Shown piece by piece: positions 3,371-16,675 of a DNA stretch of 64,000 nt; the first letter of the stretch is position 1, and each line of letters opens with the position of its first letter. The DNA is from an uncultured Clostridia bacterium (lineage in GTDB: Bacteria; Bacillota; Clostridia; TANB77; CAG-508), in assembly GCA_947629555.1 (NCBI GenBank), contig CANRED010000002.1:3071-67070 (forward strand), read 5' to 3'. The notes under the pieces are model-generated. The model had not been told where the DNA came from, made no database searches, and saw nothing but the letters and a program-made list of their open reading frames with translations. The position numbers were made by a program, and so were the translations under genes.

Positions 3371-3428
3371 TGTAGGGAACAGACCAACGTCGTTCCGTTT
3401 GAGGTGTCACCGAAGGTGACGGAGGGTT
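3371..3428 (+). repeat. REP-like unit A plus module 2 hairpin
   Basis: TGTAGGGAACAGACCAACGTCGTTCCGTT (3371-3399) is identical to 59324-59352. It is followed by GTCACCgaaGGTGAC (3406-3420) and GAGGGTT. Confidence 0.85.
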
Positions 3429-14034: not shown

Positions 14035-15279
14035 ATGTATAATTTATTAGGAATAAGTAATGAAATAGTAGAATTATCAGAAAAAGTAGAAGAAGAATTA
14101 TCAGAAATATTTAAAAAAGTAAATAAAAATTGTGAAAAAACTAGCATGAAAGTATTAAATGCTTTTCAAGAAAATAATGTTTCAGAAATGCATTTTGGTT
14201 CAACTTCTGGATATGGATATGGAGATATCGGAAGAGACACTATAGAAAAAATATTTGCTAAAGTTTTAGGCGCAGAGGATGCGTTAGTAAGAAATCAATT
14301 CATATCTGGTACACATGCTCTAACCGTTACATTATTTGCAATGCTAAGGCCAAATGATATAATGTTAAGCATAACAGGAAAACCTTATGATACATTAGAT
14401 CAAGTAATAGGATTAGAAGAGAATGATAGTTCACTACAATCATATAATATAAACTATGAACAAATAGATTTAATAGATAGTAAATTTAACATTGAAGCAA
14501 TAAAGAAAAGAGCAGAAAAAAATGATATAAAATTAATAACAATACAGCGCTCTAGAGGATATGCTTTAAGGAATAGCTTAACTGTGGAAGAAATTGGAGA
14601 GGCAATAAAAGCAATAAGAGGAGTTAATAAAACTGCAATAATAATGGTAGATAATTGTTATGGAGAATTTGTACAAGAAATAGAACCAATAGAAGTTGGT
14701 GCAGACTTAATAGTGGGCTCATTAATAAAAAATTTAGGCGGTGGAATTGCACCAAATGGCGCTTATGTTGCAGGAAAAGAAAAATTAATAGAACTTGTTG
14801 CAGAAAGATTAACAGCACCTGGACTAGGAAAAGAAGTTGGACCAACACTTGGAATAAACAAAAGTATTTTACAAGGGCTTTTTATGGCACCACATGTGGT
14901 TGCAAGTAGTTTAAAAACAGCAATATTTGCAAGTAGAATATTGGAAAAATTAGGATATAAACCAAATCCATTATATAATGAAAAAAGAGCGGATATAGTT
15001 CAAACTATAGAATTTGGAGATAAAGAAAAATTAATAAAATTCTGTCAAGGAATACAAATGGGTTCACCAGTAGATTCAAAATCAATACCAGAACCATGGG
15101 ACATGCCAGGATATACAGACAAGGTAATAATGGCAGCAGGAGCATTTACAGCAGGTTCATCAATAGAATTAAGCTGTGATGCACCAATAAGACCACCTTA
15201 TGTTGCATTTCTACAAGGTGGATTAACCTATGAATATGGAAAATTAGGAGTTTTAAAAGCAATACAAAATATAATGTAG
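14035..15279 (+). CDS. YnbB-like PLP-dependent enzyme (methionine gamma-lyase / aluminium-resistance family)
   Basis: HFGSTSGYGYGDIGRDTIEKIFAKVLGAEDALVRNQFISGTHA matches the family N-terminal signature. 414 aa. Confidence 0.75.
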   Translation: MYNLLGISNEIVELSEKVEEELSEIFKKVNKNCEKTSMKVLNAFQENNVSEMHFGSTSGYGYGDIGRDTIEKIFAKVLGAEDALVRNQFISGTHALTVTLFAMLRPNDIMLSITGKPYDTLDQVIGLEENDSSLQSYNINYEQIDLIDSKFNIEAIKKRAEKNDIKLITIQRSRGYALRNSLTVEEIGEAIKAIRGVNKTAIIMVDNCYGEFVQEIEPIEVGADLIVGSLIKNLGGGIAPNGAYVAGKEKLIELVAERLTAPGLGKEVGPTLGINKSILQGLFMAPHVVASSLKTAIFASRILEKLGYKPNPLYNEKRADIVQTIEFGDKEKLIKFCQGIQMGSPVDSKSIPEPWDMPGYTDKVIMAAGAFTAGSSIELSCDAPIRPPYVAFLQGGLTYEYGKLGVLKAIQNIM

Positions 15280-15405
15280 GGAACAGCACACTCTTGGCTC
15301 CATTATGTAGGAGTCGATGCCCACATCGACCCGTTGGAGCTGTCACTGTAGGGAACGACGCCCTCGTCGTTCCGTTGGAGCTGTCACCGAAGGTGACTGA
15401 GGGTT
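15276..15405 (+). repeat. cluster of three REP-like units plus module 2 (BIME-like)
   Basis: GTAG at 15276, 15307 and 15348. The 16-nt direct repeat CCGTTGGAGCTGTCAC occurs at 15331-15346 and 15372-15387. The terminal hairpin is GTCACCgaaGGTGAC (15383-15397). Confidence 0.9.
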
Positions 15406-15424
15406 ATAAAAAGGAGAAAAATAA

Positions 15425-16675
15425 ATGAAGGTAATTGTAATTGGAGGAGGACCAGCAGGAATGCTAGCAGGGATTAGCGCAGCAAAACAAGGAGACTCTG
15501 TAACAATATTAGAAAAAATGAATTCATGTGGTAGAAAATTACTAATAACAGGAAAAGGAAGATGCAATATAACAAGTAGCCTCAACATGGATGAATTTAT
15601 AAAGAATATACCAGGAAATGGTAGATTTTTGTATAGTGCATTTAAAAACTTTACTAATACAGATATAATACAAATGTTAGATAAAGAAGGAGTAAAAGTT
15701 AAAGGCGAAAGAGGAAATAGAATATTCCCATTATCAGATAAATCACAGGATGTACTAAACGCACTATTAAAAATATTAAAAAAATTAAATGTTACAATAA
15801 AAACGAACGCAAAAGTAAAAGATATTATTGTAGAAAATGATGTTGCAAAAGGTGTCGTATTAGAAGATGAAAAAATATATGCAGATAAAATAATACTTGC
15901 AACAGGAGGAAAAAGTTATCCTGAAACAGGATCTACAGGAGATGGATTTAAAATAGCAAATAAAATAGGACATACTGTTACAGAATTAAAGGCATCATTA
16001 GTTCCGTTAGAAATATATGAATCATATTTATATAAACAATTACAAGGATTAAGTTTAAAAAACGTAGGAATAAAGATAAAAGATATAGAAAAAAGTAAAA
16101 TAATATATGAAGATTTTGGAGAAATGATATTTACGCACTTTGGTGTATCTGGACCAACTATATTAAGTGCTTCAGCAATATTATTAAGGTACAAAAATAT
16201 AGATGAACTATTAAAAAATAAGAAAATAAAGTTATATATAGATTTAAAACCCGCACTTACAGAAGAACAATTAGATTTAAGAATAAGAAGAGATTTTGAA
16301 GAAATAAAAAATAAGCAATATAAAAACAGTTTAGATAAGTTATTGCCTCAAAAATTAATACCTTCAATTATTTATTTAAGTGAAATAAATGAAAACAAAC
16401 AAGTTAATGAGATAACAAAAGAGGAAAGAATAAAATTAGTAAAATTATTGAAAAATTTTGAGGTAACAATAAAAATGTTTAGACCAATAGAAGATGCAAT
16501 AATAACAGCAGGAGGAATTGATACAAAACAAATTAATCCTAAAACAATGGAATCAAAAGTAATAAAAAATTTGTACTTTGCAGGAGAAATAATTGATGTA
16601 GACGCATATACTGGAGGATTTAATTTGCAAATAGCATATTCAACCGGATATACTGCGGGAATGCATATAGAGTAG
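15425..16675 (+). CDS. HI0933/BaiN-family FAD-dependent oxidoreductase
   Basis: N-terminal VIVIGGGPAGM dinucleotide-binding motif, KGRCNIT, and C-terminal GEIIDVDAYTGGFNLQ typical of the family. Confidence 0.8.
   Translation: MKVIVIGGGPAGMLAGISAAKQGDSVTILEKMNSCGRKLLITGKGRCNITSSLNMDEFIKNIPGNGRFLYSAFKNFTNTDIIQMLDKEGVKVKGERGNRIFPLSDKSQDVLNALLKILKKLNVTIKTNAKVKDIIVENDVAKGVVLEDEKIYADKIILATGGKSYPETGSTGDGFKIANKIGHTVTELKASLVPLEIYESYLYKQLQGLSLKNVGIKIKDIEKSKIIYEDFGEMIFTHFGVSGPTILSASAILLRYKNIDELLKNKKIKLYIDLKPALTEEQLDLRIRRDFEEIKNKQYKNSLDKLLPQKLIPSIIYLSEINENKQVNEITKEERIKLVKLLKNFEVTIKMFRPIEDAIITAGGIDTKQINPKTMESKVIKNLYFAGEIIDVDAYTGGFNLQIAYSTGYTAGMHIE

Follow-up and report, generated by a model that had tools for sequence, protein, structure and literature searches.

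Repetitive extragenic palindromic sequences (REPs) with a GTAG tag were described by Di Nocera, De Gregorio and Rocco (2013; PMC3733652). In these high-copy, extragenic elements a 5′ GTAG stands directly before a GC-rich palindrome. They form head-to-tail dimers, trimers and larger mosaics, some families lie within larger 'target' palindromes, and their GTAG termini often coincide with the TAG stop codons of flanking open reading frames (ORFs). Here we describe a compound cluster of repeats with the same traits, located in the spacer between a ynbB-like gene and an HI0933-like gene of an uncultured Clostridia bacterium. The locus lies in a window of 64,000 nt (C2:3071-67070) of the focal genome, G000, an assembly from rabbit-gut samples with 1.30 Mb in 45 contigs and 27.7% G+C; C-numbers denote its contigs and the other G-numbers its relatives. 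This low-GC host differs from those of the described GTAG-tagged REPs, since Firmicutes and Clostridia go unmentioned in PMC3733652, and it joins a repeat class for which most studies concern Proteobacteria and Cyanobacteria. Two further differences concern arrangement. Clusters in G000 are almost only direct, with 35 head-to-tail (same-strand) pairs of neighbouring units against 2 truly inverted ones, and the REPs are tied to a specific double-hairpin linker module with covarying stems.

The enzymes linked to such repeats, TnpA_REP or REP-associated tyrosine transposases (RAYTs), cut single-stranded DNA between C and T (one enzyme also between C and A), 5′ or 3′ of the REP. GTAG acts as the guide for cleavage, and the enzyme then joins the cut end to a free 3′-OH (PMC8266576). 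In TnpA_REP subclass 2.4, which equals Bertels group 4, the protein is ~194 aa long and REP copies lie in frame inside the tnpA_REP gene, a layout unique to this subclass (Quentin et al., 2018; PMC6006769). The bacterial interspersed mosaic elements (BIMEs) of Escherichia coli and the REPINs of Pseudomonas are also REP clusters with defined linkers, and they are thought to be the units handled by RAYTs. They are inverted REP pairs, whereas the three units at our locus are all co-oriented and nearly all clusters in G000 run head-to-tail. The insertion sequences of the IS200/IS605 group (IS608, ISDra2) offer a further parallel, with a Y1 HuH enzyme, hairpins near the ends, a guide of 4 nt that lies 5′ of the hairpin foot and determines where the DNA is cut, strand-specific single-strand transposition and insertion 3′ of a short target (PMC8266576). 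They differ from the present case in that no transposase lies within the element here, no fixed target is seen (AC precedes 22% of the heads, and GTCAC does so in three cases), and the spreading unit would be a 130-nt mosaic instead of a defined left-end/right-end element. We conclude that the locus holds a compound REP cluster in head-to-tail arrangement that belongs to a RAYT system of the subclass-2.4 type. It is a known kind of element and leaves the current picture of REPs unchanged.

Anatomy of the spacer block

Reading the sequence base by base, we found TGTAG starts at 15275, 15306 and 15347, all on the + strand. The second and third of these begin GTAG-tagged REPs, each with GTAG at the stem foot and composed of TGTAG, a 9-bp stem and a 4-nt loop. 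Unit 2 (15306-15346, +) reads TGTAGGAGTCGATGCCCACATCGAC + CCGTTGGAGCTGTCAC. Its REP, termed REP-A (15306..15332, +), consists of TGTAG + GAGTCGATG / CCCA / CATCGACCC and was assigned to the GGGTCGAT/GAGTCGAT family by repeat search and folding. Unit 3 (15347-15387, +) reads TGTAGGGAACGACGCCCTCGTCGTT + CCGTTGGAGCTGTCAC and contains REP-B (15347..15373, +), the inverted repeat TGTAG + GGAACGACG / CCCT / CGTCGTTCC, which is canonical in the largest family of the genome; the same 27-mer also occurs in frame inside a RAYT-like gene on C1. The 16-mer CCGTTGGAGCTGTCAC that closes both units is present in two exact copies in the window, at 15331..15346 and 15372-15387, and none of 100 shuffles contained any match with up to 3 mismatches allowed. 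Copy 1 (+) is the 5′ part of an arm that we call R, and it ends at the GTCAC/TGTAG junction. The complete R arm (CCGTTGGAGCTGTCACCGAAGGTGACTGAGGGTT, 15372..15405, +) was recognized by its folds and includes the hairpin GTCACC-GAA-GGTGAC at 15383-15397. Past unit 3, the block runs on as CGAAGGTGACTGAGGGTT up to 15405.

Unit 1 (15275-15305, +, TGTAGGGAACAGCACACTCTTGGCTCCATTA) is built differently. Its 5′ part (15275..15290, +, TGTAGGGAAC...) is a truncated REP-B-type head lacking the 3′ stem arm. It matches the TGTAGGGAAC family, which counts 111 occurrences in the genome, yet it has no hairpin partner downstream; as a head only, unit 1 by itself is not a GTAG-tagged REP. It amounts to a REP-head remnant of 10-12 nt fused to the 15-nt arm CTCTTGGCTCCATTA (15291..15305, +), termed L, and forms no hairpin of its own. 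In the folds, L pairs with GGAGCT at 15337-15342 of the first 16-mer, thereby enclosing unit 2; it forms the left arm of a palindromic module that recurs in the genome. The same remnant of unit 1 is present in a paralogous block at C1:68240.

The full intergenic spacer measures 145 nt. Its AT-rich last 19 nt (15406..15424, +) are the ribosome-binding region, with the site GGAG at 15413-15416; they are not repeat and resemble the entire 11-12 nt spacer of G005 and G001. A preliminary description of this stretch, made from the sequence alone, had listed the units, the 16-mers, the hairpin and the overlapping TAG, all of which direct reading confirmed. Two of its statements hold in part. Repeats do fill the spacer as far as 15405, with the last 19 of its 145 nt left over, and three TGTAG heads are indeed present, the first belonging to a remnant head plus L arm and not to a hairpin unit. 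Of the two flanking genes, the ynbB-like one (14035..15279, +, from the ORF list) encodes a 414-aa pyridoxal phosphate enzyme (Pfam Met_gamma_lyase, PF06838, E=1.7e-176). The HI0933-like gene (15425..16675, +; Pfam PF03486 and PF22780) encodes a flavoprotein and is the downstream partner of ynbB in nearly all relatives.

We took a census of the whole 1.30-Mb genome with a pattern that joins GTAG to a GC-rich stem of 7 bp or more. This returned 198 intact GTAG-hairpin units, about 1 per 6.6 kb, in about six stem families. The REP-B stem GGAACGAC, that of unit 3, accounts for 82 copies. The REP-A stem GGGTCGAT, the type to which unit 2 belongs, has 27 copies, and the variant GAGTCGAT found in unit 2 itself has 4. 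The stem families GGGTCGGC, GGGTCGCA, GGGTTGCA and GGAACGGC number 26, 16, 10 and 9 copies, respectively. As expected of REPs, the copies are many, dispersed and extragenic, 181 of the 198 lying outside long ORFs. The REP-B pattern GTAGGGAACGNCGCCCNCGNCGTTCC gave 75 matches in G000 and 0 for the reversed control. Within the genus, this relaxed pattern was found 75 times in G000, 129 times in G004, 22 times in G005, once in G002 and 0 times in three others. The combination of REP-B with R occurs about nine times in G000. The L-arm motif CTTGSCTCC(C/A)TT(A/G) has 19 genomic copies, 12 of which form an intact double hairpin with covarying arms.

Insertion into a nearly empty spacer

We located ynbB and its downstream HI0933 orthologs in 30 relatives and found the gene order conserved. 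The orthologous spacer spans 0-19 nt in most of them and comprises just a ribosome-binding site, as in G001 (12 nt) and G005 (11 nt), two species of the same genus, neither of which has a repeat; several more distant genomes have an extra gene between the two. Because the spacer is nearly empty in most relatives, the G000 block is, on this comparison, a lineage-specific insertion. Three further species of the genus carry different insertions at the same place, namely one different TGTAG unit in G002 (64 nt), different units with one exact REP-B among them in G004 (141 nt), and another element in G006 (149 nt). By the same comparison, this short spacer has been struck independently several times. 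These near-empty spacers and different insertions bear out the preliminary suggestion that the repeat family has been active here. That description had named identical spacers everywhere and the lack of any other such junction as contrary findings; we found that the spacers vary and that a second junction of the same type lies at C1:68117. The whole composite was found in 0 of 84 other family genomes searched, in which separate REP-A and REP-B heads do occur. An exact-pattern scan for unit-number variants among metagenome contigs with the ynbB 3′ end gave no match. We also considered a target-site duplication and rejected it: at most ATAA/TATAA is shared, which is meaningless in AT-rich DNA, and ATAAAA follows other R arms too. 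In G008, which belongs to another genus of the family, the same spacer (contig C12 of that genome) holds three tandem AT-rich palindromic repeats of ~110 nt that are unrelated to those of G000 (...TTTTTTGCCTCACATGGCTTCGAGGGTAAAGTCTGCGAAG...), so that the site attracts more than one kind of repeat.

The TAG at 15277-15279 that closes the ynbB-like ORF overlaps the first TGTAG (15275), and the preliminary description had taken this stop to be supplied by the repeat. This is doubtful. The product ends at the same position, with ...AIQNI-X before the stop, in G000, G002, G005, G009, G015 and G023, and the length of the protein is unchanged by the insertion. Three of the five relatives with a protein of equal length have TAG at this position, in the contexts AAA TAG GAG (G005), TTG TAG GAG (G023) and TTG TAG GAT (G015), and these three are repeat-free; G002 and G009 have TAA. 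For comparison, TAG makes up 19% of the long-ORF stops in G000. Since the stop is at its ancestral position and TAG occurs in repeat-free relatives, the codon may not come from the repeat. Judging from these alignments, the TAG was probably already there, and the repeat head abuts or replaces the native stop. Three other units in G000 have a GTAG that closes a long ORF. The stops of the relatives were TAG in 1 of 1 case for the RsmB-like gene and in 0 of 2 for the GlmU-like gene, and they were uninformative for TrmFO. The TAG stop of murD in G004 is clearly repeat-supplied, as all relatives have TAA. The notion that TAG stops might serve as landing pads for GTAG is thus a weak lead, not a rule. 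In G004, the GTAG of a further REP-like family coincides with the stops of both ynbB (CTG TAG, followed directly by GGGCGGACGG) and murD (GTG TAG, followed directly by GGGCACCG). A second TGTAG at the ynbB site of that genome stands directly before the native GAG ribosome-binding site, so that TGTAG is found on both flanks of the insert.

Independent assemblies reproduce the two sides of the block. Logan contigs from three runs (ERR10663762-64) encode an identical ynbB product and contain unit 1 and REP-A up to ...GGAGCTGT. A contig from ENA begins inside REP-B (GGGAACGACG...) and runs through the R arm into HI0933. Two Logan contigs, L119 (ERR10663764) and L120 (ERR10663762), join, at contig positions 2744-2880, the ynbB spacer to the tail of the C1:91711 paralog and its downstream PMT-family gene, and the switch falls exactly at a 31-mer common to both loci. 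This join is probably an assembly chimera at k=31; it may also be a real repeat-mediated rearrangement in those samples. For metagenome-assembled genomes the practical point is that such repeats break or mis-join short-read assemblies exactly at these spacers.

Origin of the GTCAC/TGTAG junction

The duplicated 16-mer and the break in the first R arm had been read as a junction created in this spacer, either by nested insertion or by unequal recombination. Comparison with other copies in the genome speaks against this. The core of the R arm, GGAGCTGTCAC, has 17 genomic copies with CGAAGGTGACTGAGGGTTC as the usual continuation, and only here and at C1:68117 does the arm break off after GTCAC with TGTAG next to it. 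The latter lies in a paralog (C1:68240-68040) with the same layout, namely the REP-B head remnant and L arm, REP-A, a CGTTGGAGCTGTCAC/TGTAGGGAAC junction and REP-B. It is ~90% identical to the window block over the shared span, contains a 48-nt hairpin module within the loop of REP-A and differs in its tail downstream of REP-B. This block is located between murD and an arsR-type gene and is specific to G000; it is absent from the relatives, including G002, whose spacer of 95 nt lacks it. Another paralog, at C1:91711, comprises the L arm, REP-A and a complete, decayed R arm. It corresponds to the window block minus exactly 41 nt, which appear as a gap in the alignment and consist of REP-B and the 16-mer. 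The insertion point of these 41 nt is ambiguous over 17 positions owing to the repeated 16-mer, and one description of the addition is a unit "TGTAG...GTCAC" put after GTCAC. With an identical junction in one paralog and a single REP in the other, the junction is no evidence of an event in this spacer. On the sequence evidence it is inherited from a composite that was copied as a block and was not made here. The copies provide a natural series for REP cluster growth, from the empty site in relatives through the one-REP paralog to two copies with the 41-nt addition, one of which carries the further 48-nt insertion in a hairpin loop. The series also illustrates that a seemingly local "nested insertion" can be a trait inherited with a composite that is propagated whole.

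There are four Y1_Tnp matches in the genome. Two are strong and of the IS200 type (125-128 bits), and two are weak and lie in ORFs of ~190 aa. The latter are found at C15:231-788 (+, 185 aa), with the motifs PNHIHMI, WQRGYYEH and YIENNP, and at C1:113234-112634 (-), with PNHIHGI, WQKSYYEH and YIQNNP. The two proteins thus share NHIH, WQ..YYEH and YIxNNP, and they are 38% identical. Within each ORF, two inverted copies of a single REP type lie in frame, those of the GGGTCGGCG type on C15 and those of REP-B on C1. Their best family match was NF047646, REP-associated tyrosine transposase, with 70 and 63 bits, and the only match in a PDB search with the C15 protein was E. coli TnpA_REP (4ER8). A Y1 HuH gene of the TnpA_REP type is therefore physically linked to the same REP, as in a REPtron, with the caveats that the C1 gene contains a TAA and that no such gene was found for REP-A. 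Comparison with Table 1 and the text of PMC6006769 places the genes in subclass 2.4, from motifs and layout and not from phylogeny. The shared features are a Y1 HuH protein of ~190 aa with NH[IFV]H, WQ and YIxNNP, REPs in frame within the gene, and REPs of the long canonical kind whose stems have three G-C pairs at the foot. Differences from that subclass are the premature stop in one gene, the absence of REP-A from the RAYT genes found and scores that fall below the NCBIfam equivalog cut-off of 80.

We consider it probable that the locus is a compound REP block of RAYT-type repeats that was inserted in this species' lineage with its junction inherited, the junction being a likely RAYT scar and the block a passive passenger. 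In such a course of events, a one-REP composite would have gained the 41-nt REP-B unit once, in a progenitor, and the finished block would then have been copied to at least two spacers of G000, among them the former 11-19 nt gap of the ynbB-HI0933 pair. The anatomy is that of a dead REP-B head fused to arm L, with REP-A enclosed by L and its partner arm R; the additional 41 nt (REP-B followed by the 16 leading nt of R, or a circular permutation thereof) split R just before its terminal hairpin. The repeats would be substrates of the genome's RAYT-like Y1 (HuH) transposases, and GTCAC/TGTAG the likely scar of a RAYT cut-and-join between C and T. The bases that precede TGTAG offer some guidance. 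C is found at this position in 30% of 187 heads, AC in 42 of the 187 (22%, in a genome of 27.7% G+C), and CAC in 6 of the 187, roughly four-fold above the background of 0.8%. GTCAC/TGTAG occurs three times in the genome, and CAC is likewise found before many REP-B copies of G004 and G005. The earlier idea of an IS200/IS605-like target 3′ of GTCAC therefore agrees with the frequency of AC and the enrichment of CAC, and it conflicts with the ~70% of heads that lack C at -1.

The absence of C before so many heads weighs against the reading of the junction as a RAYT scar, and so do several other observations. Intact R arms read C/C at the break, not C/T. CAC or GTCAC is a microhomology of 3-5 nt that is also present after other REPs, e.g., at C30:11191, and it could explain the junction without any transposase. 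The C1 gene that bears REP-B has an in-frame TAA at codon 7 (MENKLS-stop-RKG...) and may be dead; the TAA may reflect either a recent inactivation or a strain variant. No RAYT gene bearing REP-A was found in the genome. The link of the RAYT-like proteins to the junctions is drawn from sequence context. Furthermore, the different tail of the C1:68240-68040 paralog demands at least one further recombination or replacement, and the central junction at this locus is seen in the G000 assembly alone, the independent contigs covering its left and right parts.

Two other accounts of the junction were weighed against the same data. Duplication of a 41-nt unit in situ, in tandem or through unequal crossing-over, with later divergence, would suit two adjacent 41-nt units with identical 16-nt tails in a genome that also contains tandem REP arrays with a period of 31-32 nt (e.g., C13:37695 and C8:22141). 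We find it extremely unlikely. Between the heads of units 2 and 3 there are 8 differences in 25 positions, most of them compensatory pairs, against tails that are 100% identical; the heads are canonical for two different families, of 30 to at least 80 copies, and by this comparison the two units are members of distinct REP families. Together with the identical junction in the paralog at another locus, the distinct heads largely rule out a simple duplication. Recombination among dispersed composites with no transposase, whether through microhomology or ectopic homologous exchange, gene conversion or template switching, has more to recommend it and is nonetheless rather unlikely. It would account for modules that are shuffled in many combinations, heads truncated at loops and swapped tails, for the L arms duplicated around a REP at C12:36723 and C13:10775, and for CAC or GTCAC on both junction partners. 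The intact L/R loop TTATGTAAGGGAG resembles the REP head TGTAGGGA/TGTAGGAG and could supply homology for exchange, and the premature stop in the REP-B RAYT gene fits as well. Such recombination leaves unexplained how the repeats arrived in essentially empty spacers (11-12 nt here), the strand orientation bias of 100:12 and the lineage-specific bursts of an invariant 26-mer (75, 129, 22 and 0-1 copies in one genus), all of which match RAYT-associated REP families (PMC6006769, PMC3733652). We thus favor a RAYT scar as the more likely mechanism, as far as sequence context can indicate. In a bolder form of the transposase account, the whole head-to-tail mosaic (~130-200 nt, with REPs nested in the double-hairpin linker) would spread as a block through a subclass-2.4 RAYT that cuts between AC and T, and it would land preferentially at stop codons, with a native (T)GTAG or TAGG as the landing pad. 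Both block copies start on or beside the stop codon that precedes them, independent insertions in G004 do likewise at two loci, and the ynbB stop position holds TAG in the three repeat-free relatives. We hold this form to be unlikely; if true, it would be a mode of REP propagation unlike the REPIN model.

With regard to function, the block is probably a passive passenger, a tolerated insertion at an operon junction, and it keeps the HI0933 ribosome-binding site intact. It would add three sense-strand hairpins to the operon transcript, and it may affect how stable the mRNA is or how strongly ynbB and HI0933 are expressed relative to each other. A selected cis-regulatory RNA that tunes this expression as a stabilizer, attenuator, terminator or processing site would agree with the sense-strand placement of units between co-directional genes (100 sense, 12 antisense), with a spacer that folds better than shuffles (z = -2.6 as RNA, -4.1 as DNA), with the covariation of the L/R double hairpin among copies and with the known effects of REPs on mRNA stability (PMC3733652). 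We judge it very unlikely, since the block is absent in nearly all relatives, where the two genes almost abut. An Rfam scan of 15000-15700 recovered no known structured RNA (best E=1.7, 19.7 bits against a gathering score of 49.9), and no T-run follows the terminal hairpin at this locus. Stem mismatches are evenly split between G.T (20) and A.C (21), without the asymmetry of selection on an RNA strand. Finally, 83% of genes are co-oriented with the GC skew. Lagging-strand genes have just 5 units between them, too few to part transcription from replication; the sense bias is for this reason inseparable from replication direction.

Linker module and other repeat modules

The double-hairpin linker module is ~60 nt long and was found at 12 loci, e.g., C13:17716, C22:15594 and C6:53477. 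Its sequence is CTTGSCTCCCTTA-nnn-TAAGGGAGSTG + GTCACC/GGCGC/GGCAC-GAA-complement + GGAGGGTTCTAT. Covariation among copies is seen in both of its stems, and the distance to a REP upstream never exceeds ~60 nt. A T-run comes after some copies, and these could serve as terminators. Within the window, the R arm is present at 15372-15405 and at 3388-3428.

The hairpin module of ~48 nt lies inside REP hairpin loops at C1:68190-68143 (-), C1:57182 (-), C31:4039 (+) and probably C17:24835 (+). It reads ACTACGTATAyTGAkGyTGT-AACTCACATAyGTTCGA-ACArCCTCArCA. Its stem shows compensatory changes between copies, its 17-nt loop is conserved, and it represents a second level of nesting.

In GGGTCGGCG-type REPs, G.A is the commonest stem mismatch genome-wide (38 cases). 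By our reading of the arms, it occupies one fixed position of the GGGTCGGCG/CGACGACCC family, reminiscent of the bulge that E. coli TnpA_REP needs for recognition. At about 20 loci (e.g., C1:83628 and C12:10734), a conserved 5′ module, TTGyATAGGAAAAATCGATGCAAAC, stands directly before TGTAG in several REP families. Consequently, many "REP units" extend beyond head plus hairpin, and the C/T step before TGTAG belongs to a conserved element. At the end of one contig (C30:11050-11060), a (CA)n microsatellite adjoins a REP cluster.

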